A stretch of 64,000 bases of DNA, from assembly GCF_004765795.1 (NCBI RefSeq), contig NZ_SBIV01000007.1:1-64000 (forward strand), in the 5' to 3' direction. Made by a program: the position numbers and the translations under genes. Below are positions 3,310-49,738 of this stretch, in pieces. The DNA comes from Halorussus marinus (GTDB lineage: Archaea > Halobacteriota > Halobacteria > Halobacteriales > Haladaptataceae). The notes under the pieces were generated by a model. It made no database searches, was not told the origin of the DNA, and was given only the letters and a program-made list of their open reading frames with translations. Position 1 is the first letter of the stretch; each line of letters starts with the position of its first letter.

Positions 3310-3340
3310 TCTGTCAGCACTAGTTATCGGCGTCGACCAG

Positions 3341-4060
3341 TTAGTTCAATTCATTCCGTACAGCTGAGTAGAGGAAGTCCTCGACGTCCCGGTATGTCGG
3401 GTCGTCTGCGACCTCGGCCTCGATCCGATCCCAGAGTTCCTCGGGTACTTCGAGCCGCCGGCCGCCTGTCCGCGCCTCCCGCAGCGCCTCAAGGTCGATG
3501 TCGTAGGCCTCCTCGTCGTAATGGGCGTTGAACGCGGCGTCGGCCGCCTCGAGGTTGGTGTGGTTGTCGGGTATGTCCGGCGCCGACTCGGACTCGTCAA
3601 TTACCGCCCGGAGTTCGTACTCCTTGTACGCCTCTCGGATGTCGTCTACGAAGTCCCAGTACTCCTCGACGGACGCCGTCTGCCTGTTGGGTGCATCGTA
3701 GCCGAGCGCCTCCATCCCGATCACAGCCCGCTTGTTGAGGATGGCATACGTGTCCGGGGCGAGAACATGGAGTAGCTCGGTTGCGGTCGCCCAGCCGAAG
3801 CCGTCGAGTTCCAGCACGTCTTCGAGGGCATCCGTATCCTCGAGCGCCCGCTCGACGGTGGCAACGACCTCATCGGGACTCTGGTCGTCCAAGACGATGT
3901 TGTCGACGTAGTGGTCGATGCTTCCCCGTGTCTCGGTCGCCCAGAAGCCGTTGTGGGAGACCAGTTCCACGAACGTGTCGCGGGACGGGGTTTCGAGGAA
4001 GTTCTCGGCCAGTTCACGTTTCTCTCCGATGTCGTCGTTCCGATCTGGGTAGTAGCTCAT
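3341..4060 (-). CDS. Hypothetical protein with an HhH-like segment (GFGWATATELLH...YAILNKR) and an RHH-like C-terminus
   Basis: Acidic ORF; resembles DNA-binding domains seen in restriction-associated proteins (inference). Confidence 0.7.
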   Translation of the reverse strand: MSYYPDRNDDIGEKRELAENFLETPSRDTFVELVSHNGFWATETRGSIDHYVDNIVLDDQSPDEVVATVERALEDTDALEDVLELDGFGWATATELLHVLAPDTYAILNKRAVIGMEALGYDAPNRQTASVEEYWDFVDDIREAYKEYELRAVIDESESAPDIPDNHTNLEAADAAFNAHYDEEAYDIDLEALREARTGGRRLEVPEELWDRIEAEVADDPTYRDVEDFLYSAVRNELN

Positions 4061-4413
4061 TTGCTTCATCTCGTTCTGTTTCGAACTTCGTTCCTTCTCG
4101 ATAGCGACCAATCTTCATTCTCTGTTCGTAGTTCTATTGGGATAAGTATTTTCCCAAGTCGTGCAATCAGTAGCGCGTATTCGAAAAATTTCCGGGAAAT
4201 AGAGCATCTGAGCGGGAAACTCGCCGTCCCTATAGTCGATTTTCCGGTTCTGTTAATGGGATCAGGCTTCCGGAATGCGATTGATTCAGGGGATTCACAA
4301 TCGCGTTACTGGCCGCTAATTTTCCCGATAGCACCAGGGTCGTCCAGATGTTTTCCGGAAACAACCCAATCACGTTTTTAGTACTAGCCAGAAAACCAGT
4401 CTACCAAGCAACG

Positions 4414-5442
4414 ATGATCCGCGATGCTCGCGTTCTCCGCGCCGGGTTCGTCCCTCGGGAAGTTGAGCATCGCGACGCCGAAGTCAACCACCTCTCCAGC
4501 GTCCTCGAGCCCATCACGAACGGAGAACCAGCCGACACAGCCATCGTCACCGGACCCAGCGGCGCCGGCAAGACCTGCATCTCGCAATTCGTCACCGAAC
4601 GACTCCGGGAAGAGGTCCTGGACGTTGAGGCCACCTACGTCAACTGCTGGCGTAATTACACCCGATTTCGGACGCTCTACCAGATCCTCGACGACCTCGG
4701 CGCGACCATCGACATCCACCGGCAGTCGACGCCGCATGACGAACTCGTTGACCGCCTCCAGCAGCATGACGGCCCGCGAACCGTCGTCATCCTCGACGAG
4801 GTCGACCAGCTCGAAGACCCCAGCGTCATCTACGACCTCCACAGCCTCCCGCAGTTCGCGATCATCTGCATCGCGAACAAGGAAGAGGAGCTGTTCAGCC
4901 GCGTCGACGACCGCCTCGTGAGCCGCCTGCGCTCCAGCGAACACGTCCGGATGGCCAAGTACCACGACGAGCAGCTGTACGACATCCTGAGTGCGCGGGC
5001 GAAGTGGGGGCTCGACGAGAACGTCATCACCGACGACCAGCTCTACCGGATCGCCGACGCGGCCGCCGGCGACGCCCGCCTCGCAATCGGCATCCTCCGC
5101 ACGGCCGCCGGCAAGGCCGACCGCGAAAACCACGAACGCATCACCGACGACATTCTCCTGGACGCCGCCGAGGATGCTCGGGCCCAGATTAAGCAGAAGA
5201 GCATCGATTCACTCACGCCACACCAGCGGGTTGTCTACGACATTGTCTGCGACTATGGCCCACTCGGACCAAGCAAAATCTATGATCGCTATACTGACGA
5301 GGTTGATGATCCACGAACTAAGCGAACCATTCGGACGTATCTGTCCAAAATGACGCAATACAACCTCCTCAGAGCGGACGGGTCAAGCCGGGATCGAGAA
5401 TACACAGCCATCGATCAACCATCTCCCATACTCGCTGAGTAG
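4414..5442 (+). CDS. cdc6: Orc1/Cdc6 family protein (short plasmid-type paralog)
   Basis: Walker A GPSGAGKT, YVNC, Walker B ILDEVD, GDARLAI, C-terminal wHTH. Confidence 0.92.
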   Translation: MIRDARVLRAGFVPREVEHRDAEVNHLSSVLEPITNGEPADTAIVTGPSGAGKTCISQFVTERLREEVLDVEATYVNCWRNYTRFRTLYQILDDLGATIDIHRQSTPHDELVDRLQQHDGPRTVVILDEVDQLEDPSVIYDLHSLPQFAIICIANKEEELFSRVDDRLVSRLRSSEHVRMAKYHDEQLYDILSARAKWGLDENVITDDQLYRIADAAAGDARLAIGILRTAAGKADRENHERITDDILLDAAEDARAQIKQKSIDSLTPHQRVVYDIVCDYGPLGPSKIYDRYTDEVDDPRTKRTIRTYLSKMTQYNLLRADGSSRDREYTAIDQPSPILAE

Positions 5443-6799
5443 GGGGAAACGGAACTGGCCCTTCCGGTAACTATTAAGTGGCTTTGTGACTACATTGAAT
5501 ATAGTGTCGGACGACGAGTATCACCGCCGAACGGCCATCACACGACTGGCTGTATCCCCATCTGACGAAAAACTTCTCCGAGATACCATCAAGCAGTGGA
5601 AACAGGGGTGCCAGATTGCCGTAGATAAGGCGTGGGAGCGGTGCCACTCGAAGTCCGACATCCAGCAACTTGCCTACGACGACGTGCGAGAGGCCACTAG
5701 TCTCAGCAGCCAACACGCCATTCTCGCGTGTCATCAAGCAGCTGAGAACATCAAATCCTGTATCTCCCGTCGTCAAAACGGGAAGAAAGCGAGCAAGCCC
5801 ACATATACGAGTCCGACCATCACTTACGACAGTCGGACAATGACCCTCTTCCCCGAGAAAGAAGAGGTGACGCTCACCACGCACGGCGACCACTCGCGAA
5901 CCCGAGTCAGCCTCGTCCTACCAGACGAGGAAACCGGCTACCAGTACCAGTATTTCGACAGCGACGAGTGGGAATCCACGGAATCCACGCTCCACTACCG
6001 TGACGGCGGATGGTATCTACACATTGGCTTCCGGAAACTGACGCAAGACGCTGAGGAAGAGACGACCGAGAACGGAACGGTTCTCGGCGTTGACCTTGGC
6101 GTGAACGAGATAGCTGTGACCAGCACTGCTCGGTTCTTTTCTGCTGGTGAATTAAGTCATAAGCGCCGGGAGTTTAAACGAGTGCGTGGGAATCTCGAAG
6201 ATCGTGGTACGCGGAACGCTCACCGTGCTCTACAAGCGGTGAGTGGCCGGGAAAACGAGTACGTGAAACACATCCTCCACAGGGTGGCAAACGGAATCGT
6301 CGAGGAAGCGCTGCGCTACGACTGTGATGGAATCGTTTTTGAGGAGTTAGATGGAATTCGGGAGCGACTTCCTAAAGCGGATTGGCACTCTGAATGGGCA
6401 TTTCACCGTCTCTACGAGTACGTCGAGTACAAGGCAGAGGCAGAAGGAGTGTTCGTAGATACAACGAATCCAAAGAACACCAGCATACGGTGCGCTGAGT
6501 GTGGCTCGATACACAGAAAGAACCGCTCTACTCGAGAAAGATTCGAGTGTCAGAACTGTGGGAACCGGAACCACGCGGATTACAATGCCGCTAAGAACGT
6601 CGCAGACGTGTATCTCCGACGTGAGCAACAGTCCTCACGTCGGAGGGGCGTCAGTCAATACGCCCTGAAGTCCGGGACTGTGACGCCGAACCGGGGATAC
6701 ACCCCGTACCCCGACGGGTTCGAGGCTGAGTCCGCGGACAAGCCCCACTCTCCACGAGCGAACCCACCAGGGTGAGCGAAGCAGGTTGGGGTTGTTGAC
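5443..6799 (+). mobile_element. IS1341-type element 1 (tnpB only); right end ...gttgttgac at 6799; left end approximate
   Basis: tnpB followed by a hairpin-containing end terminating in TTGAC; no tnpA. Confidence 0.7.
5504..6775 (+). CDS. tnpB: TnpB, RNA-guided endonuclease (IS200/IS605, IS1341-type)
   Basis: RuvC-I GVDLG, RuvC-II VFEEL, Zn finger CAECG/CQNCG, RuvC-III ADYNAAKN. Confidence 0.92.
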   Translation: MSDDEYHRRTAITRLAVSPSDEKLLRDTIKQWKQGCQIAVDKAWERCHSKSDIQQLAYDDVREATSLSSQHAILACHQAAENIKSCISRRQNGKKASKPTYTSPTITYDSRTMTLFPEKEEVTLTTHGDHSRTRVSLVLPDEETGYQYQYFDSDEWESTESTLHYRDGGWYLHIGFRKLTQDAEEETTENGTVLGVDLGVNEIAVTSTARFFSAGELSHKRREFKRVRGNLEDRGTRNAHRALQAVSGRENEYVKHILHRVANGIVEEALRYDCDGIVFEELDGIRERLPKADWHSEWAFHRLYEYVEYKAEAEGVFVDTTNPKNTSIRCAECGSIHRKNRSTRERFECQNCGNRNHADYNAAKNVADVYLRREQQSSRRRGVSQYALKSGTVTPNRGYTPYPDGFEAESADKPHSPRANPPG

Positions 6800-7049
6800 G
6801 CAGAAGAGTCTCGATTTACTCACTCCGTACCAGCGCGTCGTCTACGACATCGTTCGCGAGCACGGCCCGGTCGGGCCGAGCGAGATTCACGAGCGCTATA
6901 CCGAGGAGGTCGATGATCCACGGACGAAGCGGACTGTTCGGGCGTATTTGTCTAAGATGACTCAATACAACCTCGTCGAAGCAGACGGATCCAGCCGAGA
7001 TCGCGAATACACAGCCATCGACCAGCCATCTGCTACGCTCCCTGAGTAG
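6800..7049 (+). pseudogene. Second copy of the cdc6 3' end (wHTH), diverged duplicate of 5193..5442
   Basis: 250-nt colinear match (QKSLDLLTPYQRVVYDIV...EYTAIDQPS) starting exactly at the IS right end. Confidence 0.85.
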
Positions 7050-8464: not shown

Positions 8465-9807
8465 GTGAACCGCCCCAGAGTCAAGCTCCGAGACTTCCTG
8501 CTTCCACGACGCGCTTTGCAGACACCGAATCGGTGTCCGTAGGGAGCGCAGTCTCCACAGGCGTGTCTTCGGGCCATCCCAGCCCTAACTCAGCAAAGCC
8601 GCGTTTAAGCACATTCATCGCTGCGTTCGCGTCCCTGTCGACCTCGAACCCGCACGACGGACAGGAGTGTTCCCGAACCCAGATAGATTTTGCCGTCTCC
8701 ACACCACACTTCGCACATTCTTTCGTTGTCCCAGCAGCTTCCACCTGCACGACGTGCGTGCCATACAGCTCGGCTTTGTACTCGAGGAGGGAGATGAACT
8801 GTCGCCACGCAGCATCCTGGGTGTTTCGCGCGAGGTGCGAATCCTCCAACATCCCCTTCACGTCCAAATCCTCGACGAAGACGGCGTCGTACTCACGGAC
8901 GAGCCAAGTCGTAATCTTATGCTGGAAGTCCTCGACCTTCCGCTTGATGTGGCGCTTGACTTTCGCTACCTCACGACGCTGCTTCTCGTAGTTGGACGAC
9001 CCCCTCTGCTTGCGAGACAGCTTACGTTGCTCGCGTCGGAGGCGCTCGTATTCGCCTTCGAGATCGAGCCAATCCACGGTCTTGCCATCAGATGTTTGGA
9101 TGTAGTTGAGGATGCCGAGGTCGATACCCACGCTGTTGCTTGCGTTCAACGAATCCACGTCGGGCTTCTCGGGGAGATCAGCCTCGTCGGTTTCGAGGGC
9201 GAAGGTGACGAACCACTCACCAGTCGTCTCCTTCTTGATCGTGACCTCCTTGATGTCCGCTTCATCGGGAAGGGGACGATGGTAGCGGATCGGAATATCT
9301 CCGATTTTAGAGAGCCAGAGCGTCGCACGTCGGCCACTCGTGTTTTTGAGTTTGAAGCCGTGCTGCGAGTACGTGATACTCTGGAACTCTCGTGGTGATT
9401 TCCACTTGAGATTCCCGACCTTGTTCCCGTTCTCTTTTTGTTGAGAGAGGTTCGAGAGGTTGTCGTAGAACAGGGTGACGGTTCGCTGAAGGGCTTTCGC
9501 GTTCACCTCTGTGAACACGGGGAACTCGTCCTTCCAGTCCGGGAGACGACTGTGGTGTTTGTATGCAGACCCGGTACTGTCAGCATCGAGGTGCGTGTAC
9601 TCGTATCGGGTGTAGTTGTACGCTTGGCGATGAATGTCGATGTGATGTTCCAGCTCAGCCGCTACCTCTTGTGTCGGGTACGCGGGGTAGCGGTGAGTGT
9701 ACTCCATCGCTGTCTTCTCATTAGAACGTGTCCGGCAAATGGTTTGTGGGACGGACCGTTGAGTTCATTCCCGGAATTCAAGCTCTCGGGAAAGTCGCCT
9801 GAACAGT
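8465..9807 (-). mobile_element. IS1341-type element 2
   Basis: Right end on the minus strand: ctcggagcttgactctggggcggTTCAC. Left-end hairpin ttcccggaattcaagctctcgggaa near 9770-9793. Left boundary approximate. Confidence 0.7.
8481..9707 (-). CDS. tnpB: TnpB, RNA-guided endonuclease (IS605 OrfB)
   Basis: N-terminal HTH_OrfB-like YPTQE, GIDLG, FVEDL, CAKCG/CPSCG, DRDANAAMN. Confidence 0.93.
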   Translation of the reverse strand: MEYTHRYPAYPTQEVAAELEHHIDIHRQAYNYTRYEYTHLDADSTGSAYKHHSRLPDWKDEFPVFTEVNAKALQRTVTLFYDNLSNLSQQKENGNKVGNLKWKSPREFQSITYSQHGFKLKNTSGRRATLWLSKIGDIPIRYHRPLPDEADIKEVTIKKETTGEWFVTFALETDEADLPEKPDVDSLNASNSVGIDLGILNYIQTSDGKTVDWLDLEGEYERLRREQRKLSRKQRGSSNYEKQRREVAKVKRHIKRKVEDFQHKITTWLVREYDAVFVEDLDVKGMLEDSHLARNTQDAAWRQFISLLEYKAELYGTHVVQVEAAGTTKECAKCGVETAKSIWVREHSCPSCGFEVDRDANAAMNVLKRGFAELGLGWPEDTPVETALPTDTDSVSAKRVVEAGSLGA

Positions 9808-9894: not shown

Positions 9895-10140
9895 CCGTGA
9901 CCCCGTCAGCTATCAGGAACTGAACTCGCCGAGGCCCGATTGCTCGTGGTCCAGCGGCTCGATGATCTGGGGATCGTCGTTGCCGGGGTTGTTAACTCGC
10001 GTCGAGATCTCGTAAGCGTCTAGATCGTCCTTCGGATACGGCTGACACAGTTCCTTGCGGGTGTCCGGATCTGCGGCGAGCCAGTCAGATTCCGCGTCCT
10101 GTGGAAGGACGACCGGCATCCGGTCGTGGATTGAGTTCAT

Positions 10141-11560
10141 AGTGATTGTGAGGCGGATACCCTGATCCTTGAGGGCAGGGAGGAAGCCGACACCCGATGA
10201 CACAAACTAAACACGGTGCCAAGGCCGACTCCCTCGGCATCTATAAATACCTTCAAGTATCTCTAAGCGTACTAATGAAGTATGGAGGTCGTCCGCAACA
10301 TCCAGCTCAAGCTCGACGTTCCCGAGGACGCTCACAGTGTCCTCGACGAGACGTTCGAGCAATTCCGTCAAGCGGCCCAACACGTCGCTGACGCTGGATG
10401 GAGTGACGACCCCACACAGATCAAGGACACGAAGAACACGCTCCACGAACAGACCTACACTACTGTTCGGGAGCAGACTGGTCTGCAAGCCAGCCTCGTC
10501 CAATCCGCCCGCAACCTCGCCGCCGACGCCCTCGGCAACTGCAAAGACCGTATCCTTGACGACGGCAAGAAAGCCAGCAAGCCCGAGTTCCGAGGAAGCG
10601 TGGTCGTGTACAACGGACGCACCATCACGTACAACGACGACCACGTTACCCTCGCCACCGTGGACGACCGCGTGACCGCCGAGTTTGTCACACCCGAAGA
10701 TGAGGAAGGGACGCCGTTTGCGGAGTATTGGACGGACGACTGGGAACGCAAGGAAGCCACGCTCCACAAACGTGACGGCACGTACTACCTCCACGTCGCA
10801 GTCGAGAAAGAAGTCGAACCCGCTGATTCTGGTGACCAGCAACCCGAGAACGGAGTGGTTCTCGGCGTCGATTTGAACGTGGACGGATACCTCGCCGTCA
10901 CCAGCACGGGAGCGTTCCTCGGTAATGCAGACTACCTCAACCACAAACGCGACGAGTATGAACGTCGGCGCGGCAACCTCCAACAGACAGGCACTCGCTC
11001 CGCGCACCTCACCATCAAGAGCATCGGCTCACGGTTTTCTCGGTGGAGTGCGGACTACCTCCACCGCGTCTCGAAAGCGATTGTGCAGGAGGCCGTGGAG
11101 AATGACTGCACGGCGATTGCGTTCGAGAATTTGAACCACATACGGAAGCGTATCTCGAACGCCAGCAAGTTCCAGCAGTGGGCGTTCCGCGAACTCGAAC
11201 GCCACGTCGAATACAAAGCCGAAGAGTACGGCATCGACGTAGACGATGTTGCCCCTGCCTACACGTCACAGCGGTGTAGTCACGACGAGTGCGGATTTAC
11301 CCACGAGGACAACCGTGATGGTGATGAGTTCGAGTGTCTGAAGTGTGGAAAGAAACTCCACGCCGATTATAACGCCGCTCGGAATATCGGGTGGCGGCTT
11401 GTCCAGCACTGGCTCAAGTCTGGTGCTGGACGGGCCACCAGTCAACTGGCCCTCAAGTCAGGGACGCTGAACGCGAATGGCACTTTCACGCCTTCCGCCC
11501 TGCGCGGATAGAGCGGGAGCCCACTGACAAGCCTCGGGGCTTGACCCCGAGGCAGTTGAC
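10141..11560 (+). mobile_element. IS1341-type element 3, inserted 3' of TTCAT with no target duplication
   Basis: Both junctions defined by in-frame restoration of SRAP. Left-end hairpin ccctgatccttgagggcaggg; right end cctcggggcttgaccccgagg-cagTTGAC. Confidence 0.9.
10282..11511 (+). CDS. tnpB: TnpB, RNA-guided endonuclease
   Basis: GVDLN, AFENL, YTSQRCS..CG, CLKCG, ADYNAARN. Confidence 0.93.
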   Translation: MEVVRNIQLKLDVPEDAHSVLDETFEQFRQAAQHVADAGWSDDPTQIKDTKNTLHEQTYTTVREQTGLQASLVQSARNLAADALGNCKDRILDDGKKASKPEFRGSVVVYNGRTITYNDDHVTLATVDDRVTAEFVTPEDEEGTPFAEYWTDDWERKEATLHKRDGTYYLHVAVEKEVEPADSGDQQPENGVVLGVDLNVDGYLAVTSTGAFLGNADYLNHKRDEYERRRGNLQQTGTRSAHLTIKSIGSRFSRWSADYLHRVSKAIVQEAVENDCTAIAFENLNHIRKRISNASKFQQWAFRELERHVEYKAEEYGIDVDDVAPAYTSQRCSHDECGFTHEDNRDGDEFECLKCGKKLHADYNAARNIGWRLVQHWLKSGAGRATSQLALKSGTLNANGTFTPSALRG

Positions 11561-12229
11561 CAGGTCGTTCGGCTCCGTTGTGATAATCGTGACGCACGAG
11601 ATCCTCTCGTCGTCGCCCTCCCAGACGTCCCAGAGCCCGGCCATCGCGAATGCGGGGTCGTCTTCGCGGTAGATCCGGTAGGGCTGTTTCGACCCGCCAT
11701 TCGATGATTGCCACTCGTAGAATCCCGACGAGAGGACCAGGCAGGGGCGGGATTCCCACGCCCGCTCGAAGACGCGTTTCTCGCCGGCAGTCTCGGAACG
11801 AGCGCTGATGATGCCCTCCTCGTGCTCATCCGCCCAGAACGGAATCAGCCCCCAGTGGTAGGCGTCGATCTCGTCGGAGCCCTCGTTCGTGATGATGTAG
11901 AGGTCCTCACCTGGCGCGATGTTGTATCGGGGTGTATACCCGCCGTCTGCGACGACCTCGGCGTCGAAACGGGCCTCGAGGTCGGCCTGATCGATGAAGA
12001 GCGAGTTTCGACCACACATACATCCTGATCCAACTGGGAGAGTCTTCAACGTATTTGAAAATGTGAAGGGCTGGTTCTGAGGCCCCTTCGTTTGATGGTA
12101 GATTTGGGATGATTGGCAAGTACAGAGGTTCTATACAACAGAGGAGGCTTCTATGGAAAACAGATAAACGGCACTTCTCTACTGACAACCTACAAAACTA
12201 TTTCACCATTACATCCGATTGGTGGAAGC

Positions 12230-29675: not shown

Positions 29676-29734
29676 ATTTTCATCTCCGTTGAGGCGCGTC
29701 TCACGGGCCAGATGTTCGACAACTGTACTCCGAA

Positions 29735-29806
29735 TGCGCGAGGGCGGTTCGAACGCCCGTCTCGGACGTGGCACGACCGCGTGTTTCCGAACTCTACCAC
29801 TCGCGC
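29735..29806 (-). tRNA. tRNA-Gly(GCC)-like, possibly degenerate
   Basis: GCGCGAG..GTAG AGTTCGGAA ACAC..CGGTC GTGCCAC GTCCG..GGGCG TTCGAAC CGCCC TCGCGC A; one anticodon-stem mismatch; T and acceptor stems compete for one C. Confidence 0.7.
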
Positions 29807-29812
29807 ATCCTC

Positions 29813-29833: not shown

Positions 29834-31363
29834 CTAGGTCGGCTCGAACGCCTCGATTTCATCGATGATCTGCTTCGGATTCTCGGCGTGTTCGATGAAC
29901 GAGAGGACGTTCTCTGACCATCCCGAGATGTTGTAGACGTTCTCGTAGCCTTCTGGCGTCACTAGGTCTCCGTAGGCCGCGAGATCGACGAGATACAGCG
30001 CGGTGTCCGCAGACACCGCGTCTCGATACGCATCGAACGCGTCCTTGACCGTCTGGGAATCGCGGGCCGTGAACGGCGTGTTGTCCCAGATCTGCATATC
30101 GGTGAAGACGACGATGCGTTCGACGGGCTCACCTCGCTCGCGGAGGTAATCGATTGCCTTCCAGCCGTTCGTCGAGTTCCCGGTATCCTCGTCGATCGCC
30201 AACACCGCTGCTTGGCGCTGCAGGACTGGCGTGTCGACGTGCATCGGAACGGTCTGGAAGTCGTCGCCGAACCCGCCGACGTCAGCACCTTGGTCGGCCA
30301 GGATCGCACCGAACAACGCACCGATCTCCTTCAGTCGGAGCGTGCTGTTCGCGGACAGCGGCTGATCCATCGACCCTGACAGGTCGACCGCGACAAAGGT
30401 ATCGCCGAATCCGCCAGGCACCGTCTCGACCGCGACATCAATTGCATCTTCGAGCCACTGCTCGACCGTCGGTGCCTGGACGTCCGCGTCTTGCAGCGCG
30501 GTGTAGGCCTGGTAGTACCGGAACGGGTACAGCGGCGCGTGTCGGACGGCCTCCAGGTCGAGGTGATCCACGACGGTGTCCTCCGGCACGCCGGCTTCGA
30601 GCATATTCCGGAGGTTCCGGATCGACGCGAAGATGGGCAGCGTGTACTCGTCGTCCTCGATGAGCAGTTCCCAGGCGGCTTGGGTGTTGCCGCGCTCGGA
30701 AATAACCGTCTCCCACGTGTTCGGCGCCGGCAACGGGTCGACGTCGGGATAGTCGTCAAGGCCACCACGCATGAACCGCTCGAAGAGCGCTTCCTGCTCG
30801 GCGTCGACGGGCGTGGGGTGGACGCGGTTGAAGACGTCGTGCAGCGTCACCTCGCGCCGCGACAGGTCGTACTTGCCCAGCGTGTAGGCGTCGGCCATCT
30901 CCACCAGTGCGTCCTCGATCCCGCGTCGAAGCGGCCACGGCGCAGTCCCGCCGAACAGCTGATCGTGGACCGCGAGCGCGGTGGCCGTCTCGTCCATCCG
31001 CTGGATGATCGCCGGCGCCCATTCGCGGATGAGCGACTCGGGGGAGTCGTCCTTGAATCGGTCGTCGTTGGCTGCCAGTACGAGTAGCACTTGTGGGATG
31101 TCCCGCAAGTAGAGCTCCTGGCGAGCATAGGCCGCGAGCTTCAGGACGAACTCCGGGTCCTCGTTTGCGGCGGCATCGAACTGGCGAACGACAGCAGCCA
31201 GCTGCTCGTCATCGGTCTCGTAGAACGACCCCTCCAGCAGCTGGTTGATCGTGCGCTTGTACAGTGCGAGTAGGGGGTCGGCAGGCTCGAACGCTTCCCC
31301 ACCTTCGTAGTTGGTGGTCCGCGTTGCCTCCGCGACCGTTTGCTTTGGCGTGTTGAATTCCAT
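29834..31363 (-). CDS. rsr: Ro60 / TROVE-domain RNA-binding protein (Rsr-like) with vWA domain
   Basis: TROVE motifs TTNYEGGEAF, DPEFVLKLAAYAR..LYLRD.P, DAYTLGKY, TWET, ASIRNLRN, YPFRYY; vWA MIDAS DLSGSM and VFTDMQ; SD GGTGA upstream. Confidence 0.93.
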   Translation of the reverse strand: MEFNTPKQTVAEATRTTNYEGGEAFEPADPLLALYKRTINQLLEGSFYETDDEQLAAVVRQFDAAANEDPEFVLKLAAYARQELYLRDIPQVLLVLAANDDRFKDDSPESLIREWAPAIIQRMDETATALAVHDQLFGGTAPWPLRRGIEDALVEMADAYTLGKYDLSRREVTLHDVFNRVHPTPVDAEQEALFERFMRGGLDDYPDVDPLPAPNTWETVISERGNTQAAWELLIEDDEYTLPIFASIRNLRNMLEAGVPEDTVVDHLDLEAVRHAPLYPFRYYQAYTALQDADVQAPTVEQWLEDAIDVAVETVPGGFGDTFVAVDLSGSMDQPLSANSTLRLKEIGALFGAILADQGADVGGFGDDFQTVPMHVDTPVLQRQAAVLAIDEDTGNSTNGWKAIDYLRERGEPVERIVVFTDMQIWDNTPFTARDSQTVKDAFDAYRDAVSADTALYLVDLAAYGDLVTPEGYENVYNISGWSENVLSFIEHAENPKQIIDEIEAFEPT

Positions 31364-31371
31364 CCTATCAC

Positions 31372-31473
31372 CCGGAGCCGCAACAGGCGACTCCGATTTT
31401 GGTGCTGCTCACACGTGGTGCGAGCAGCGAGTCTCGGGAGCGAAATTTCCCGAACCAGCCTCGCATCGCTCGG
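31372..31473 (-). ncRNA. Degenerate Y-RNA-like element (Y0) immediately upstream of rsr
   Basis: Terminal pairing CCGAGC/GCTCCGG; GCGA opposite TGTTGCG (cf. GGTTGCC in Y3); GGC/GCC; AAATTTC variant of the YUNCUUC motif; internal GCTGCTCGCAC/GTGTGAGCAGC hairpin. Confidence 0.45.
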
Positions 31474-31478
31474 CTGGA

Positions 31479-31553
31479 CGTTCCCGGCACGATTCGAACG
31501 TGCGACACCCGGCTTCGAAGGCCGGTGCTCTGTCCTGACTGAGCTACGGGAAC
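31479..31553 (-). tRNA. tRNA-Arg(TCG)
   Basis: Canonical cloverleaf: GTTCCCG TA GCTC..GAGC A CCGGC CTTCGAA GCCGG GTGTC GCACG TTCGAAT CGTGC CGGGAAC G. Confidence 0.95.
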
Positions 31554-31556
31554 ACG

Positions 31557-31640
31557 AGTGGCCGAACAATTTCTGGAGCGAACGACGGGATTCGAACCCG
31601 TAGCGTGCCATCGACGTAGCGCTCCAGATCGACGGCCACT
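31557..31640 (-). ncRNA. Y-RNA-like ncRNA Y1 (84 nt)
   Basis: AGTGGCCG/CGGCCACT stem; TCGA x AATTGTT loop; TCTGGAGCG/CGCTCCAGA 9 bp; CTACGTC; T-arm ACGGG TTCGAAT CCCGT; no anticodon arm. Confidence 0.75.
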
Positions 31641-31647
31641 GGCGACA

Positions 31648-31795
31648 CGGCGACCGGAAAACTGTCGGAGCGGGACCGGTGTCGAGCGTCCTCTCGGACG
31701 CTCTTTGTCCGGGATGTTCTCGATGGACTGCGCCACCGACAGGATTTGAACCTGCGAGTTCCTGGCGAAGCAACGCTCCGACTCGACGGTCGCCA
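31648..31795 (-). ncRNA. Y-RNA-like ncRNA Y2 (~148 nt)
   Basis: TGGCGACCG/CGGTCGCCG; TCGA x AGTTTTC; GTCGGAGCG/CGCTCCGAC; TTGCTTC; T-arm GCAGG TTCAAAT CCTGT; extra GAGCGTCC-GAGA-GGACGCTC GNRA hairpin. Confidence 0.75.
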
Positions 31796-31887
31796 CGTGC
31801 GGTCGGGCAACCGGTGGTGCGACGGGCTATGACTCCCGTTGGTGTGCTTTGCGGGCGAAGAAACGCACCACCTCGACGACCACACGC
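31795..31887 (-). ncRNA. Y-RNA-like ncRNA Y3 (~93 nt)
   Basis: GCGTGTGGTCG/CGACCGCACGT; TCGA x GGTTGCC; GGTGGTGCG/CGCACCACC; TTTCTTC; T-arm-like ACGGG AGTCATAG CCCGT. Confidence 0.72.
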
Positions 31888-31889
31888 TT

Positions 31890-31976
31890 GGGGAAAGCCG
31901 ACCGTGACAGCGTCACAGATCCGTGGCTGCCCGCTATGTCAGACACGGAATAAACGCTGTCAGGGCCAGCCTCCCC
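31890..31976 (-). ncRNA. Rod-like structured RNA related to the Y module
   Basis: GGGGAGGCTGGCC/GGTCGGCTTTCCCC, TGACAGCGT/ACGCTGTCA, TCCGTG/CACGGA; ...GCG followed by TTTATTC; lacks the TCGA loop. Confidence 0.5.
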
Positions 31977-31979
31977 GAG

Positions 31980-32055
31980 TGCTCCCGAGGGGAATCGAAC
32001 CCCCGAACTCCACCTTGAAAGGGTGGCGTCTCTCGCCAACGGAGACTCCGGGAGC
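31980..32055 (-). tRNA. tRNA-Glu(TTC), non-canonical G8 and D-arm
   Basis: GCTCCCG GA GTCT CCGTTGGCGAG AGAC G CCACC CTTTCAA GGTGG AGTTC GGGGG TTCGATT CCCCT CGGGAGC A. Confidence 0.88.
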
Positions 32056-32102: not shown

Positions 32103-32507
32103 TTATCGCAGGCGTTCGAAGCCCTCGAGTTGCCCGTGCGTGAACGTCACTTGATACGTGACGAGTGTATCGAGATCCTCGAAGGAGTGTTTGAGCTTGA
32201 AGCGGCCGTGGTAGTCCTCTCGTTCGATCCAGCCGTCGTGGACTCGGTTCCGACTGCCGGCCATGTAGCGAAAATCGTCCTCGTCGACGTCGTCACGGCT
32301 CGCGTATGGCCGGTCTTCTGGCGGGACCGCTTCGGTGTGCCACTCCTCTTCGAGGAGCCGACCGTCCGCCGTAATCCGAAATGTGGTCATGGTCGGTCGA
32401 TCGATGCCTTTCGTCTGCCAGTCGACATCCTCGGCAGGAGTAATCCCTTCGGGGTACTCTGGCAGGTGGACGTCGTCGTAGAGTTCGACTGTATCGAATA
32501 GGCTCAT
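32103..32507 (-). CDS. Hypothetical protein embedded in the tRNA operon (SLFD...WQTK...FRITADGRL)
   Basis: 134-aa acidic ORF co-oriented with the tRNAs; haloarchaeal codon usage. Confidence 0.75.
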   Translation of the reverse strand: MSLFDTVELYDDVHLPEYPEGITPAEDVDWQTKGIDRPTMTTFRITADGRLLEEEWHTEAVPPEDRPYASRDDVDEDDFRYMAGSRNRVHDGWIEREDYHGRFKLKHSFEDLDTLVTYQVTFTHGQLEGFERLR

Positions 32508-32686
32508 CTTGATACATCGAGGGAATCCCGCCCTTCCCGTGAGTGAAGAGTGTTCCAACTGGTCGGAACCGAGAAACGAACAGGGCGGGAGGGAATCGTG
32601 TAATCTTCGGGCGACAACCGCCAGGACTGTCGTCTAACTGAATACCGGACGTAAGTGTTTACTTACACGGCTACTTACATAGCTCT

Positions 32687-32827
32687 GTGCGAACCGACGT
32701 GGATATGGAGCGGGACGGCGACCTACACGAACGGGTCAAAGAATACGCCCGTGAGAACGGTATCCGCCACCCACGAGCATACCGCGAGCTAATCGAGAAG
32801 GGATTAGAGGCCGCCGATGCCGACTAA
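32687..32827 (+). CDS. Small RHH-like protein upstream of tnpB (IS passenger or regulator)
   Basis: Manual translation VRTDVDMERDGDLHERVKEYARENGIRHPRAYRELIEKGLEAADAD*; overlaps the tnpB start. Confidence 0.6.
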   Translation: MRTDVDMERDGDLHERVKEYARENGIRHPRAYRELIEKGLEAADAD

Positions 32828-34058
32828 GACGCTCGAAGCGACACTCGCGCCGCCGACAGCCCACAAAGAGCGAAAGCTACAGGAACTCCACGACCTGTAT
32901 CACGAAGGGCTACACGAGGCGTTCGAGGCTGGCGCTGATACGCAGTCAGCAGTCAACGACATTGTGACTTCCTACGACCTGCCGTATCAGGTCAAAGACG
33001 CGCTCAAAAACTACGTGCCGTCGTTGGATGATGCACAGGAATTGAGCGACGGCCACCCGACACGAATGGTCAACCGTGCCGCTCGCTTCGACTACTCGGA
33101 GGACCGAACACACAGCTACGTGTGGGAAGTCCCCCAACCCGGACGCGGGACGAATTTCTGGATTCCGCTTCGCATCAACCCCGAACAGGAACATCTGTGG
33201 GCCGACCTGCTGGCCGGGAATGTCTCGCCCGGTCAACTCCAACTGATACAGAATCGAACATCATGGATGCTACACGTCGCTGTCGAGTATCCTGTCGAAG
33301 AGCCCGATCACGATACCGACAACGACGATGTGACGCACATCGGTCTGGACATTGGTGAATCGTCTCTTATTATGGGCTGTGCCCTCAAAGACGGTTCACC
33401 GACCCGCCCGCTTGTGTGTGACGGGAGCCGTGCGAAGCATCTCCGCAAAGAGATGTACACCACACTGAAACGACTGCAAGAGCGAGACGCAGCCGAGTGG
33501 CGGATCGACGAGCGATTCGACCACTATCAAAACGCCCTTACCGATATTGTCGAGAAGGCGTCTCGACAGGCTGTCGAGTACGCCCGGCAATTCGAGAAGC
33601 CGGTTCTGGTGATGGAAGACCTGACGTACATCCGCGAGTCGCTTGATTGCGGCGAATTCATGAACCGGCGGCTTCATGCGTGGGCGTTCGCTCGATTGCA
33701 GGACCGTATCGAGGACAAAGCCACCGAAGCGGGAATCCCGACGATGTACGTCAATGCCGCGTACACGTCGCAGATGTGCCACGAGTGCGGTCACATCGGC
33801 TATCGAGACGGTGGCGGAGAGTTTCACTGTACGCACGACGAGTGCCACGTCACGACGTTTGAGGGCGATATAAACGGCGCTATCAATATCGCACAGCGGG
33901 CAGACCCGTGGGGAGAGAGCGTGCCGCTGAAACCGGCAGGCAATGACTCGCCTCGGGATGGGAGTGCCTGTGACAGCACCACGACCCACACCGAGCAGAG
34001 CCAATCAGAGCAGATGACGCTCAGTGAGTTCGGGTCGAAACCCACTGCCAGCGACTAG
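32817..34058 (+). CDS. tnpB: TnpB, RNA-guided endonuclease
   Basis: GLDIG, VMEDL, YTSQMCHECG, C...C, DINGAINIA. Confidence 0.92.
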   Translation: MPTKTLEATLAPPTAHKERKLQELHDLYHEGLHEAFEAGADTQSAVNDIVTSYDLPYQVKDALKNYVPSLDDAQELSDGHPTRMVNRAARFDYSEDRTHSYVWEVPQPGRGTNFWIPLRINPEQEHLWADLLAGNVSPGQLQLIQNRTSWMLHVAVEYPVEEPDHDTDNDDVTHIGLDIGESSLIMGCALKDGSPTRPLVCDGSRAKHLRKEMYTTLKRLQERDAAEWRIDERFDHYQNALTDIVEKASRQAVEYARQFEKPVLVMEDLTYIRESLDCGEFMNRRLHAWAFARLQDRIEDKATEAGIPTMYVNAAYTSQMCHECGHIGYRDGGGEFHCTHDECHVTTFEGDINGAINIAQRADPWGESVPLKPAGNDSPRDGSACDSTTTHTEQSQSEQMTLSEFGSKPTASD

Positions 34059-34122: not shown

Positions 34123-34193
34123 TTGCGGGACCAGGAGTCGAACCTGGGCCTCGGGGATATGAGCCCCGTGGACTGCCATTATCCTATCCCGCA
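34123..34193 (-). tRNA. tRNA-Met(CAT), initiator-like
   Basis: TGCGGGA TA GGAT AATGGCA GTCC A CGGGG CTCATAT CCCCG AGGC CCAGG TTCGACT CCTGG TCCCGCA A; consecutive G-C pairs in the anticodon stem; U1-A72. Confidence 0.88.
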
Positions 34194-34296
34194 GCACACA
34201 ATTCGGAACTCACTCATGGACATCTCTCAGTTCTCCACAGCTGTCCGTCCCTCAGTTTCGTCGGCTGGAAGTGAGAGGTCTCGGACTGTTGGAGAA

Positions 34297-34369
34297 TGCT
34301 CCAGCCCGGATTCGAACCGGGGGCTCGGCCGTGAGAGGGCCGTGAGTTTGGCCGCTACTCCACTGGAGC
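34297..34369 (-). tRNA. tRNA-Glu(CTC)
   Basis: GCTCCAG TG GAGT..ACTC A CGGCC CTCTCAC GGCCG AGCC CCCGG TTCGAAT CCGGG CTGGAGC A. Confidence 0.93.
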
Positions 34370-34403
34370 GGGTTGGCCTCGTCTGGAACGGGTCGTCGGC
34401 TAG

Positions 34404-34530
34404 TGGGACGGGCAGGATTCGAACCTGCGTGTTCTCGTTACAAGTGAGATGAAGGAACTCTCACCGTCGCACCGGGTCTCCGGTGAAAACTCGGCGAGAG
34501 TGTGTGAATGCCAGGCTCTTCCACCGTCCC
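34404..34530 (-). ncRNA. YrlA-like tRNA-mimic Y RNA: tRNA body (TGT anticodon-like loop) carrying a permuted Y module
   Basis: Acceptor GGGACGG/CCGTCCC-A; D-like GAAGAGCCTGGCATTC; insert CTCTCGCCG AGTTTTC ACCGG-AGAC-CCGGT GCGA CGGTGAGAG TTCCTTC; then TCTCA CTTGTAA CGAGA; T-arm GCAGG TTCGAAT CCTGC. Confidence 0.75.
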
Positions 34531-34534
34531 GCAG

Positions 34535-34606
34535 TCTCCCCAGCACGACTCGAACGTGCGTCTCCTCCTCTACAGGGAGGCATCGTAGCCGCTACACCAC
34601 AGGGAG
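34535..34606 (-). tRNA. tRNA-Tyr(GTA)
   Basis: CTCCCTG..CCTCC CTGTAGA GGAGG AGAC GCACG TTCGAGT CGTGC TGGGGAG A; archaeal C1-G72 and A73; weak D-stem. Confidence 0.85.
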
Positions 34607-34610
34607 AAAA

Positions 34611-34693
34611 TGTCGCCGCGAGGATTCGAACCTCGGAAGGACCTACGCCAGCGGGTCTGAGCCACTTCTCGTTGACCACTTGAGTACGGCGAC
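34611..34693 (-). tRNA. tRNA-Leu(CAG)
   Basis: GTCGCCG/CGGCGAC-A; AGTGG CTCAGAC CCGCT; long variable arm; CGAGG TTCGAAT CCTCG. Confidence 0.9.
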
Positions 34694-34735
34694 GGAACGG
34701 TGAAGCAATGATTGTCTCCCGGCACGACGGCCGGA

Positions 34736-34817
34736 TGCCGCCACCAGGATTCGAACCTGGGAAGGACTAACCACACGGGTCTCGACCGTGTCCGTTCGAC
34801 CACTCTGGCATGGCGGC
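34736..34817 (-). tRNA. tRNA-Leu(GAG), C33 variant
   Basis: GCCGCCA/TGGCGGC-A; CACGG TCGAGAC CCGTG; long variable arm; CCAGG TTCGAAT CCTGG. Confidence 0.88.
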
Positions 34818-34864
34818 GCAATTCGAGAATCGCCGGCGACTCTGCGAATCACTTCGGCACGCAG

Positions 34865-34950
34865 CGGCGGGAGAGCGATTTGAACACTCGTGTCCTTGCG
34901 GACGCTGCGGTTCCAACACAGTCCCTTGACCAAGCTAGGGAAACCCCGCC
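34865..34950 (-). tRNA. tRNA-Ser(GGA)
   Basis: GGCGGGG/TCCCGCC-G; CTGTG TTGGAAC CGCAG; variable arm GTCC GCAA GGAC; GAGTG TTCAAAT CGCTC. Confidence 0.88.
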
Positions 34951-34952
34951 AA

Positions 34953-35034
34953 CGGTGAGACGGAGAGTCGAACTCCGAAGACTCCCGGCTCTCGGTTTCA
35001 AACCGAGCGCGGTCGCCTATCCGCATGTCTCACC
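34953..35034 (-). tRNA. tRNA-Ser(TGA), C8 and atypical D-arm
   Basis: GGTGAGA/TCTCACC-G; CTCGG TTTGAAA CCGAG; variable arm; CGGAG TTCGACT CTCCG. Confidence 0.85.
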
Positions 35035-35176
35035 ATCTCCGTCGGAACTTGCTCCGATGAGCCCGCCTCGCGTTTCTCACCAGGACACCGAAAGACGCGC
35101 ATTACTCAGCTTCTGAGCTTTACTACCGAGGCGAATGTGTTCATCAGCATCCAGTCACGGCAGGGATGGATGGCGG

Positions 35177-35317
35177 TCACCTCGTTCCGTGGAAGTATGC
35201 GCCGTCCTCGGTGACGCAGATTTCCACGCTTCCAATCGTGTCGATGGACGTTGTTTCACCGAGCGGGACGTGACGGAACGCTTCCTCCTCGCAGGTAGGG
35301 CAGACATTCGTTGTCAT
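35177..35317 (-). CDS. 46-aa micro-protein with CPTC motif (small Zn-finger-like), inside the tRNA array
   Basis: MTTNVCPTCEEEAFRHVPLGETTSIDTIGSVEICVTEDGAYFHGTR*; ATG 2 nt after the 3' end of tRNA-Ser(GCT). Confidence 0.6.
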   Translation of the reverse strand: MTTNVCPTCEEEAFRHVPLGETTSIDTIGSVEICVTEDGAYFHGTR

Positions 35318-35319
35318 GA

Positions 35320-35406
35320 CGCCGCGACCCGGATTCGAACCGGGAGACCGATAGCAGACGGCCACGGCATAGCAGGCCGCTGGGTTCCCCAATACCCAGT
35401 CACGGC
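35320..35406 (-). tRNA. tRNA-Ser(GCT), C8 and extendable D-stem
   Basis: GCCGTGA/TCGCGGC-G; GGGT..ACCC; GCGGC CTGCTAT GCCGT; long variable arm; CCCGG TTCGAAT CCGGG. Confidence 0.87.
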
Positions 35407-35410
35407 ACAG

Positions 35411-35483
35411 TGAGCCGACGAGGATTCGAACCTCGGTCCTGTGCGCCCGATGCACAGATCGTCGTCCGCTGGACCATCGGCTC
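35411..35483 (-). tRNA. tRNA-Pro(CGG)
   Basis: GAGCCGA/TCGGCTC-A; TGTGC ATCGGGC GCACA; CGAGG TTCGAAT CCTCG. Confidence 0.87.
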
Positions 35484-35732
35484 ACGGGACTGCCGAGCGT
35501 TCGGCAGCTGATTATCTATCTGTACGACTTTCCAGCTGCGCAACCACGAACGGGTGGTCGTGGTTGCGCGTCTCATCGCGGGGGCGTACTTCGGGTGCTC
35601 CCGGGAATACCACACCGGCTCATGTAGGTTGCAGACCCTGCTGGGCCCAGCATCGTCGGAACGATCCAGCTGATCGCACCAACGGGCTGCCTACCTCGAT
35701 GGGTATCCCCACGTGGCCACGCCACGCATCCA

Positions 35733-35806
35733 CGCCGACGCCGGGATTTGAACCCGGATCACGGCCGTGACAGGACCGTATGCTCGCCGGATTACACCAC
35801 GTCGGC
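35733..35806 (-). tRNA. tRNA-Asp(GTC)
   Basis: GCCGACG/CGTCGGC-G; CGGTC CTGTCAC GGCCG; CCGGG TTCAAAT CCCGG. Confidence 0.93.
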
Positions 35807-35809
35807 ATG

Positions 35810-35885
35810 TCGCCCCGGCCGGAATCGAACCGGCGACCTCCGGATTCAAAGTCCGGCGTCCCTCGCCAGCGGAGACTCCGGGGCT
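35810..35885 (-). tRNA. tRNA-Gln(TTG), G8 and 1-72 mismatch
   Basis: AGCCCCG GA GTCT CCGCTGGCGAG GGAC G CCGGA CTTTGAA TCCGG AGGTC GCCGG TTCGATT CCGGC CGGGGCG A. Confidence 0.86.
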
Positions 35886-48335: not shown

Positions 48336-48668
48336 TCAATCGTCACTCTGTGCGGGCAGCTCTGCCAGGAACCGGGTGGCTGTTGTCCCGATTCGGACGC
48401 CGTCGACGTTGTCGACGTCAAGGTCCGCCGTAGCAGTTCGAAACGGATACTCCTCAACGAGAACCCGATAGATAACGGTCCGAATAGTCTCCGAGCCATA
48501 TCTGTCGACGACAGTCGCCATCGCTTCGTCTAGGTGGGCGTTTTGGTGGTCCACACGTGGGTGCTCTGCTCGCTCGAGAACAAGGTCGACGACGTCATCG
48601 ATCGGTGGATGCTCGGGGTTCCCGGTGCGCTCACGAACGTCATAGAGTGGCTCAGAGCCAGTCATCAT
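48336..48668 (-). CDS. Hypothetical protein (intact paralog of 128..344)
   Basis: Duplicated ORF. Confidence 0.75.
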   Translation of the reverse strand: MMTGSEPLYDVRERTGNPEHPPIDDVVDLVLERAEHPRVDHQNAHLDEAMATVVDRYGSETIRTVIYRVLVEEYPFRTATADLDVDNVDGVRIGTTATRFLAELPAQSDD

Positions 48669-49738
48669 ACTTACTCCGTCGCGTCCTCGTTCGTGTCTTC
48701 TGCCGCTGGCTCCAGCCGTCGCTGTCGACGAACCTCCGCGAGCGTGTCCTCCAGCGTCCCGAGCGCCTCGATGGCTTCGAGTTCATCGGTAATCTCCTCG
48801 AGAAGACCGGCCCGCTCGATCGCATCTGCATCGCCGGCGGTCGTCTCGATTGCCTCAACGCGGAGCTGGCGCTCCTCTTGCCACCCACAGTCCCAGCACG
48901 TCCGGACGACGTCGAGCCGCTCGTCTTCAGCAGCATCGAGCACCGCGTCGGACAGTGACGTCGGCGGCGGTCGGTCCGGCCCGACCTCGAGTGTGACCGG
49001 GCCACCGCACGCAGGACAGTCCATACCCTACAGGATGCGCGCCGCGGTCATCAACATCAGGGACCCGTGAGACGGACTCACAGAGAGGGCTCTCGAGGAA
49101 GCAAACCGGATACGTCAGGCTGGTCGTTGGGACGACAATCGCCCCGGTGACTCAGTAGACGATACGGTTCGTTTAAACTAATACATTTCGGAAGCTGGGA
49201 CTCCAGAGATGGCCCCTCGGCCGGAGAGAGCCGGCGGCCTTCGCACACTGCATATCGCGTCTTTCTTTGGACGAAAACCGCGATATGCAAGACACTATAA
49301 CGCCCTCAAATCGAAGGAGAACCTCGTCGGGCCGATTTGAGACAGTAGAAAATACCTCGACGAGCTCCCGGCTCACTACTATTTCGCTAAAATTGCTCGA
49401 CCACGGGGTAAGCGGGGTAAATTCGGGAAGTACTGATGAGAGATACGAATAGCCCTGTGTCAAGAACGCCTTGCTGGATGGCCGCGCTCTCCCGGGAGAT
49501 GCCGAAAGAGATCCCTATTCCCGCGAATTCGGGATGCTGAATCCACTCAAAATTGCCCGACGGGAGTTTCAGTACAAGGTAGACAGTACTACAACCCTTC
49601 ATCTCAATATACTGAGAGGACGGCTTGTTCACAGTCCGAATTTGACAATGGATAAGTACGGGCCGTTAACCAACAATCCGAATCAGGAACAGAGTTTGTT
49701 GGTTAATAGTCTTCACCCTCCACTGTTTCCGGAGCTTT
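48452..49738. repeat. Copy 2 of the ~1.28-kb direct repeat; includes the inverted repeat at 49666..49706
   Basis: Colinear with 128..1410. Confidence 0.9.
48671..49024 (-). CDS. Small Zn-ribbon protein (paralog of 347..700)
   Basis: CPACG and CWDCG. Confidence 0.8.
   Translation of the reverse strand: MDCPACGGPVTLEVGPDRPPPTSLSDAVLDAAEDERLDVVRTCWDCGWQEERQLRVEAIETTAGDADAIERAGLLEEITDELEAIEALGTLEDTLAEVRRQRRLEPAAEDTNEDATE

Follow-up and report, generated by a model that had tools for sequence, protein, structure and literature searches.

Tandem YrlA-like elements beside a Ro60 gene on a plasmid-like replicon of Halorussus marinus are probable archaeal Y RNA genes

Ro60 occurs in all three domains of life, as stated in the accessible text of the 2025 phiLo Ro60 paper (PMC12135203), and the described RNAs that come closest to the elements reported here are the YrlA RNAs (Rfam RF02553). 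The accessible part of Chen 2014 (PMC4201824) gives the bacterial motif as GNCGAAN0-1G and counts 254 bacteria and 22 phages with YrlA-like RNAs close to Ro60, while the string 'archae' is absent from that part of the text. Like our elements, YrlA RNAs are encoded on the strand of the Ro60 gene, a few hundred bases from it at most, and in several copies per locus. In both, the 5' and 3' ends close a long stem, the internal loop is asymmetric with 3 nt more on its 3' side, and a GNCGA core is situated close to the 5' end; the long orthologues found in this study also share the YrlA succession of T-arm, closed acceptor hairpin, 2 nt and D-arm. This circularly permuted tRNA design has been described for YrlA (accessible portions of PMC4201824 and of the preprint 10.1101/312249, Wang 2018). 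A further parallel is offered by the Thermus phage phiLo, in which the Yrl1 and Yrl2 genes, found via a CGAA motif, lie upstream of Ro60 on a mobile genome (PMC12135203, accessible text), and by the Yrn1/Ro60/PNPase system of Deinococcus radiodurans, for which the sources, as far as accessible, describe a modular logic of a Ro60-binding module and an effector-tethering/gating module. Animal Y RNAs likewise have a 5'/3' closing stem with a conserved Ro60 site, and the GGUCCGA of vertebrate Y RNAs resembles the GNCGA core (Chen 2014, PMC4201824, accessible text), but they differ in having no tRNA-like module, in their Pol III promoters and in being encoded by separate genes.

For archaea, Morgado and Vicente 2019 (PMC6333295) described a setting like the present one, namely plasmid-linked haloarchaeal tRNA clusters, and located a TROVE gene in 20 of the 29 archaeal clusters surveyed; in the accessible text of that paper the terms 'Y RNA' and 'Ro60' are absent and RNA partners are not described. 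TROVE proteins are also mentioned, with no RNA partners, in the accessible portions of an Asgard-virus preprint and a Borg paper, and a search of the full-text literature, partly accessible and with some Ro60/Y RNA reviews outside its coverage, returned no described archaeal Y RNA.

The locus studied here lies in the first 64 kb (the window, meaning the whole stretch of DNA that was analysed) of contig C7 of Halorussus marinus, a contig of 217 kb with a G+C content of 57.6%, compared with about 69% for the large contigs of the 3.76-Mb genome. Genes for several Orc1/Cdc6 proteins, a family B DNA polymerase, TFIIB, HerA, AbiEi and four TnpB-type proteins are found in the window, and on account of this gene content we regard C7 as an archaeal plasmid-like replicon. 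All 14 tRNA genes called by ARAGORN in the window are on the minus strand, on which the features around the array follow one another in the order tRNA-Glu, 91-nt spacer, Y3, Y2, Y1, 3 nt, tRNA-Arg, 111 nt, Ro60 ORF and tRNA-Gly:

34123..35885, minus strand: rest of the tRNA cluster, 11 ARAGORN tRNAs and one more tRNA matched by Rfam only
31979..32055, minus strand: tRNA-Glu (TTC), ARAGORN; Rfam tRNA 34.8 bits; 91 nt upstream of Y3
31799..31883, minus strand: Y3, 85 nt; model R1 (see below) 83.1 bits, E 4e-19; fold -42.2 kcal/mol
31650..31793, minus strand: Y2, 144 nt; model R1 60.2 bits, E 3.4e-13; fold -70.9 kcal/mol
31558..31639, minus strand: Y1, 82 nt; model R1 82.8 bits, E 4.8e-19; fold -39.4 kcal/mol
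31475..31554, minus strand: tRNA-Arg (TCG), ARAGORN; Rfam tRNA 66.1 bits; begins 3 nt past the closing stem of Y1
29834..31363, minus strand: Ro60 orthologue of 509 aa with a TROVE domain and a vWA_Ro60 domain
29732..29808, minus strand: tRNA-Gly (GCC), ARAGORN; directly downstream of the Ro60 gene

Within the array, the spacers between the elements and before tRNA-Arg measure only 3-10 nt, and the Ro60 ORF begins 195 nt downstream of Y1 on the same strand, inside the limit of at most 4 kb on the same strand applied by Chen 2014. The tRNA-Glu gene is kept in the aligned related loci, forming the upstream edge of a tRNA - Y - tRNA - Ro60 unit, and in 36 out of 44 loci the last Y element is followed by tRNA-Arg(TCG) at a distance of 3-6 nt. 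Between this unit and the remainder of the tRNA cluster lie an unannotated 151-aa ORF and a TnpB-type gene (32817-34058, plus strand). The unit itself belongs to the tRNA gene cluster, and the low-GC plasmid-like replicon carrying it has spread among haloarchaeal genera.

The protein encoded downstream of the array is a Ro60 orthologue by both of its domains (Pfam TROVE, E 5.5e-21, 75.7 bits, cut-off 23; Pfam vWA_Ro60, E 8.1e-7, 29.6 bits, cut-off 27.7). Its closest solved relative is the Ro60 of phage phiLo (PDB 9KOP/9L5Y), with E 2.8e-31 over residues 14-495, and in the alignment to the phage protein a DxSxS (MIDAS-type) motif is found that reads DLSGS. The host differs from the described systems in its nucleases. 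A search for RNase PH-domain proteins found none in the genome, which is 99.97% complete, whereas the same search was positive in 12 out of 14 control genomes, and we therefore conclude that neither PNPase nor an exosome ring is present. This sets the locus apart from D. radiodurans, whose effector PNPase is not encoded here, only one RNB (RNase R-type) protein being found, and from phiLo, a bacterial phage whose RNP assembles with host PNPase (PMC12135203, accessible text). The known bacterial partner is thereby ruled out, so that another nuclease or tRNA-handling enzyme would be needed; RtcB is present in the genome and is unlinked to the Ro60 locus.

An earlier note on this DNA, made from the letters alone, had described Y1 to Y3 as elements of one architecture with stems, a UCGA loop, a 9-bp helix, a motif and a T-arm, and every one of these details was recovered on the minus strand. 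The three elements have in common a 7-bp closing stem ending in CG, an internal loop of UCGA against 7 nt, a 9-bp stem and a NUNCNUC motif. The strand facing UCGA reads AAUUGUU in Y1, AGUUUUC in Y2 and GGUUGCC in Y3, the 9-bp stems UCUGGAGCG, GUCGGAGCG and GGUGGUGCG each have a perfect partner, and the 7-nt motif after them is CUACGUC (Y1), UUGCUUC (Y2) or UUUCUUC (Y3). The T-arm loops are UUCGAAU in Y1 (T-arm 31600-31586) and UUCAAAU in Y2, and the hairpin of Y3, orthologues of which are present in our alignment A1, carries a degenerate 8-nt T-like loop. In Y2, a 6-bp acceptor-like hairpin abuts the T stem and the place of the D-arm is taken by a long arm whose ACAAAG/GACA internal loop is conserved, while Y1 is without the acceptor hairpin and D-arm of its longer orthologues and is 53 nt shorter than its counterpart on contig C11 of the same genome. 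A complete tRNA-like domain is thus seen in none of the three window copies, nor is a D-arm; the full domain of T-arm, closed acceptor and D-arm is found in the C11 copy of Y1 and the other long orthologues. The cores matched by our model lie 1-4 nt inside the outer limits given in the note, and the extra base pairs that those limits include also form. The note named no strand and compared the GUCGA of the three copies with a bacterial GNCGA(A) strand; measured against the published GNCGAAN0-1G, the copies agree in the first five letters and depart at the sixth, which is U or G.

Compared with shuffles, the elements fold well on the minus strand (z of -3.9 for Y1, -4.5 for Y2 and -3.2 for Y3) and also on the plus strand (-4.7, -4.0 and -1.9, respectively); fold energy leaves the strand unsettled because both strands fold well, and the minus strand was assigned because of the T-loop motif, the neighbouring tRNA and Ro60 genes and the covariance-model matches. 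The geometry alone is not unique, because a scan for 7 bp / 4 nt / 9 bp / gap 25-169 / 9 bp / 7 nt / 7 bp with G-U pairs allowed found 18 places on both strands of the 64-kb window, where 20 mononucleotide shuffles average 2.65. UCGA forms the 4-nt strand in three of these 18 places, and these three are the adjacent Y elements.

Rfam families reaching their gathering score in the window were tRNAs only, none of them over the array, where YrlA (RF02553) attained 18.5 bits against a gathering score of 69. Measured against YrlA, the elements differ in being archaeal, in scoring 18.5-32 bits, and in reading GUCGA(U/G) rather than GNCGAA; they have a 4 x 7 loop with stems of 7 + 9 bp, compared with 5 x 8 and 6 + 7 bp in the Rfam consensus, an invariant NUNCNUC after the 9-bp stem, and arrays of 3-5 within a tRNA gene cluster, and in the window copies the D-arm and acceptor parts are reduced or replaced. 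The elements have diverged enough for both the Rfam model and the strict bacterial motif to miss them. Along the long orthologues, the Rfam YrlA model aligns at full length and with high posterior probability, at 31.0 and 32.4 bits against the gathering score of 69.

The array recurs widely. A second cassette, located on contig C11, has 81% nucleotide identity over 2,723 nt and keeps all three elements, next to a Ro60 that is 90% identical to the one in the window. Relatives of this Ro60 were found in six out of 61 related genomes (G000 counted), and 41 more haloarchaeal loci, several on plasmids, carry Ro60 at 75-98% identity, in Haloarcula, Halorubrum, Halosimplex, Natronomonas, Halobellus, Actinarchaeum and other genera. 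A structure scan detected one to five elements upstream of Ro60 in 44 of the 47 loci (132 elements, 97 of them unique) and was blank for L031, with only 23 nt of upstream sequence, for L040 and for L045.

We built the covariance model R1 from 47 unique short elements that MAFFT had aligned on sequence alone, with gap-free ends. In the window, R1 gave three matches at E <= 3.4e-13, the next one having E 0.42, and in the whole genome its four best matches were four of the six elements adjoining the two TROVE genes. The two Y2 copies score 25-26 bits with R1, near a 27.9-bit match at C3:250568-250636, which we rejected as a GC-rich plain inverted repeat without T-arm or loop motifs. Among 46 related loci, 126 matches at E <= 0.001 fell into 43 loci, all upstream of Ro60 and all in its sense; with the filters off, L040 gave one weak 25.5-bit match 1.7 kb upstream of Ro60, and L045, where the Ro60 match starts from residue 13, gave none. 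The earlier note had proposed a covariance-model search for co-location with TROVE genes in archaeal and bacterial genomes, and in a sample of 151 genomes of the archaeal class the co-location was found: R1 matched 12 genomes (E <= 1e-4), corresponding to 12 of the 13 TROVE-positive and none of the 138 TROVE-negative genomes, with G090 as the one TROVE-positive genome without a match. Among the matches listed for this sample, each was on the same contig and strand as the TROVE match, about 0.2-1.5 kb away. These counts overstate independence because many cassettes are near-identical copies of one mobile unit (many loci at 96-98%), and the co-occurrence with TROVE partly reflects one mobile cassette. 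Elements with compensatory changes persist at 75-78% Ro60 identity.

Covariation of both stems, which the note had claimed from three copies, was upheld in the alignment of 47 short elements. Pairing amounts to 98.8% in the closing stem, where four of seven pairs are altered on both sides, and to 98.1% in the 9-bp stem, where five of nine are; here the percentages are inflated because the scan that picked the elements required pairing, and the variety of pair types is not. The covariation score was 0.367 compared with 0.133 for shuffled alignments, none of 500 shuffles reached 0.367, and partners slid out of register scored at most 0.119. Compared with C11, the window shows compensatory changes in each of the three 9-bp stems as well as in the inner hairpin of Y2, and further ones are found among the Y2 orthologues (alignment A3, RNAalifold).

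Across the haloarchaeal loci, the constant part runs through the 7-bp closing stem, the 4-nt strand, the 9-bp stem and NUNCNUC, and returns through the 9-bp partner, the 7-nt strand and the closing partner. Under a filter that demanded NC[GAC]A, the 4-nt strand among the 97 unique copies is UCGA in 76, UCAA in 7, UCCA in 6, ACGA in 6 and CCGA in 2, the G of UCGA being substituted in the 13 copies with UCAA or UCCA. The motif after the 9-bp stem is invariant as NUNCNUC, most commonly in the form UUCCUUC or UUGCUUC, and the 7-nt return strand has the consensus RRUUUYC. The inner part varies in length and kind. Short forms of 72-91 nt, to which Y1 and Y3 of the window belong, hold only a T-arm or a degenerate T-arm. 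In the long Y1 orthologues (128-136 nt, 15 unique, the C11 copy among them), the T-arm abuts a closed acceptor hairpin, and 2 nt (UR) lead to a D-arm whose loop contains GG; T-arm, acceptor and D-arm were predicted without prompting when RNAalifold was given these 15 sequences, and three of the six acceptor pairs show compensatory changes. Y2-type RNAs (136-184 nt) comprise a T-arm, an acceptor-like hairpin, which was read by eye and is absent from the RNAalifold prediction, and a long arm with the ACAAAG/GACA loop and a covarying hairpin. For some long orthologues, Rfam's register pairs the variable region with the 3' strand of the 9-bp stem instead; we rejected this alternative as a conserved fold because compensatory changes in L047 and L041 preserve the pairing of the 5' strand only. 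A coding function can be excluded because steps of 1-2 nt (83/84/85) and of 53 nt separate the lengths of orthologues.

Taken together, the three elements are very probably YrlA-type small non-coding Y RNA genes whose products partner the archaeal Ro60 encoded downstream. The proposal of a paralogous Y RNA family is supported by a closing module that is kept while the inner domains differ, by the covariation of both stems, by model matches that adjoin TROVE genes and by a gene for a TROVE and vWA protein 195 nt downstream. By analogy with the described systems, the closing module, i.e., the 7-bp stem, the UCGA x 7-nt loop and the 9-bp stem, would be the Ro60-binding site, and the tRNA-derived inner module, which differs between the paralogues, might recruit or gate partner factors.

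Public RNA data give a hint, though not proof, that the unit is transcribed and that small RNAs accumulate from it. Parts of the stretch are covered in 19 public runs, of which three are recorded as RNA; these are assembled contigs, which carry no ends and no strand and are a poor measure of level, and some runs leave parts of the stretch without contigs, gaps from which we draw no inference. In two metatranscriptome runs from two studies, contigs over 31576-31991 reach depths of 909-6,926; depths fall to about 25-115 across the Ro60 ORF and do not exceed 12 past 32096. One RNA-seq run contains a 2,326-nt contig of depth 1,086 that spans 29916-32003, from Ro60 through the array, with flanks at 2.6-16. 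A TATA-like TTTATT at 31954-31949 was considered as a promoter and rejected, as it is unconserved in the C11 copy and RNA contigs extend past it.

That single contig over the Ro60 ORF and the whole array would also fit a reading in which the elements are cis-acting structures of a long tRNA-Ro60 transcript, serving as processing signals or as sites of Ro60 autoregulation and not as trans-acting RNAs. Spacers too short for separate promoters and a place upstream of Ro60 that is fixed in 43 of 46 loci point the same way. We nonetheless consider this reading unlikely, given that a tRNA-Arg gene stands between array and ORF in 36 of 44 loci, where its excision would part the two, that the array contigs of the two metatranscriptomes are far deeper than the ORF contigs, as for stable small RNAs, and that the design matches the free-standing YrlA RNAs.

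It is very unlikely that the elements are functionless remains, either tRNA genes in decay or duplicated tRNA 3' ends that integration events left behind. What is conserved is the non-tRNA closing module, which covaries, and the architecture persists at 75-78% Ro60 identity as well as in another archaeal family. The matches adjoin TROVE genes only and not other tRNA genes, and tRNA models fail to recognise the elements: within 31557-31887 there is no ARAGORN call and no Rfam match for a canonical tRNA, and tRNA-Sec matches in the array score 18.6-21.5 bits against a gathering score of 47. Against these observations stand the position of the elements within a tRNA cluster on a mobile element, the GTTCRANTC T-loop kept in 69 of the 97 unique copies, and the tRNA pseudogenes reported for archaeal tRNA clusters in the accessible text of PMC6333295. 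To a reading of the elements as circularly permuted precursors of working tRNAs we give next to no weight, since the elements have no anticodon loop, the stem at that place running on into the closing module, since the window copies are missing the D-arm and since no bulge-helix-bulge was seen by eye, even if the long orthologues are ordered T-arm, closed acceptor hairpin, D-arm as in permuted tRNA genes (10.1101/312249, accessible text).

For the preferred reading of the elements as Y RNA genes, a route of synthesis can be proposed. The array is most likely made as one tRNA - Y3 - Y2 - Y1 - tRNA-Arg (- Ro60) precursor, because its spacers are so short and a tRNA lies on each side. This precursor would be cut by RNase P and tRNase Z as in tRNA processing, and the 3' end of Y1 may be set where RNase P releases the 5' end of tRNA-Arg. 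Beyond this, we tentatively suggest that haloarchaea and at least one other archaeal family possess a mobile cassette of tRNA cluster, Ro60 and Y RNA array, in which diverse Y RNAs, excised from a tRNA precursor by tRNA-processing enzymes, could steer Ro60 to partners other than PNPase and the exosome, possibly as a tRNA-surveillance or counter-defence kit for the element that carries it.

Y RNAs are so far on record from animals, bacteria and phages, and the present loci would contribute the RNA component of the Ro60 particle in the third domain. The well-populated covarying alignment defines the parts under constraint, namely the 4 x 7 loop, the 9-bp stem and NUNCNUC. In cells without PNPase or exosome, the factors that the tRNA-like module may recruit are testable in genetically tractable haloarchaea, and the place of the array inside transferable tRNA clusters ties Ro60 and Y RNA to mobile-element biology and tRNA damage.

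Outside these cassettes, the TROVE loci L065, L070, L071 and L072, taken from the phylum sample described below, gave no R1 or YrlA match within 1.5-kb flanks, a scan of viral contigs with the Ro60 protein returned a single locus, at 30% identity, where neither R1 nor YrlA matched, and BLASTN of the region against phage records showed similarity for tRNA-Arg and tRNA-Glu only and nothing for the Y elements. Elsewhere in the window, a 25-bit YrlA match at 35735-35859 spans two adjacent tRNAs and was discarded as a dimeric-tRNA false positive, a kind of YrlA false positive against which the accessible text of Chen 2014 (PMC4201824) warns. In a phylum sample of 401 genomes, TROVE was found in 16 genomes, including six out of 54 from another archaeal family. 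At one locus of that family, L062, visual inspection gave a single example of a similar RNA, which lies some 175 nt upstream of the TROVE gene. Its closing stem of 6 bp is followed by CGAA against 7 nt and a stem of 8-9 bp, and both T-arm and D-arm are present; the RNA contains GCCGAAG and gives a partial YrlA match of 33 bits.

The genome of Halorussus marinus itself (G000) carries a second, complete tRNA - Y3 - Y2 - Y1 - tRNA-Arg - Ro60 cassette on another contig, C11, at approximately 69437-72103 (locus L011), with 81% DNA identity to the cassette of the window. Y1 of this second cassette is of the long form, with an acceptor hairpin and a D-arm, and its Y3 has ACGA in place of UCGA. Some of the long Y1 orthologues (see 1241-1354 in L011 and columns 28-40 of A2, the alignment of these orthologues) contain, within their variable region, a GGAGC-type stretch which, in place of the 5’ strand of the 9-bp stem, is a potential partner of its 3’ strand, and the register in which this stretch is paired is the one picked by the Rfam model. 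Because this pairing is not kept in two of the compared loci, L047 and L041, we take it to be a remnant or else, possibly, an alternative conformer.

The tRNA genes around the Ro60 loci showed variations of their own. Approximately 55 nt are inserted after the D-loop of the tRNA-Arg upstream of Ro60 in L008, where ARAGORN called no tRNA at the site with the insertion, and four further loci (L017, L024, L028 and L029) have a gap longer by 55-58 nt; the insertion may represent an intron at a non-canonical position. Close upstream of the TROVE gene of L065, a locus from a genome of another archaeal family, three tRNAs were found, two of which gave matches of about 126 nt each (738-864 and 1121-1246) and are probably intron-bearing. 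The link between TROVE and tRNA genes is thus not restricted to haloarchaea. In the window, an Rfam tRNA match of 35 bits on the minus strand (34404-34470), uncalled by ARAGORN, could mark either a pseudogene or an atypical tRNA gene, which would be the fifteenth.

Beyond the tRNA genes, the 64-kb window holds four TnpB / Cas12f-like genes and a fragmented SRAP peptidase gene:

5486-6775, TnpB / Cas12f-like gene
8481-9707, TnpB / Cas12f-like gene
9913-12049, minus strand, SRAP peptidase gene in two fragments (profile positions 159-214 and 1-161)
10282-11511, plus strand, TnpB / Cas12f-like gene flanked by the SRAP peptidase gene fragments
32817-34058, TnpB / Cas12f-like gene inside the tRNA cluster, separating the Y/Ro60 unit from the remaining tRNAs

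From this arrangement in the sequence, the SRAP peptidase gene appears to have been interrupted by an insertion element. Furthermore, the geometric scan returned identical stems at 289-438 and 48613-48762, and the two stretches are therefore near-identical repeats within the window. Immediately upstream of tRNA-Glu lies an ORF of 151 aa (32103-32558, minus strand), for which a Pfam search gave no match and whose DNA is kept in the closest related loci.
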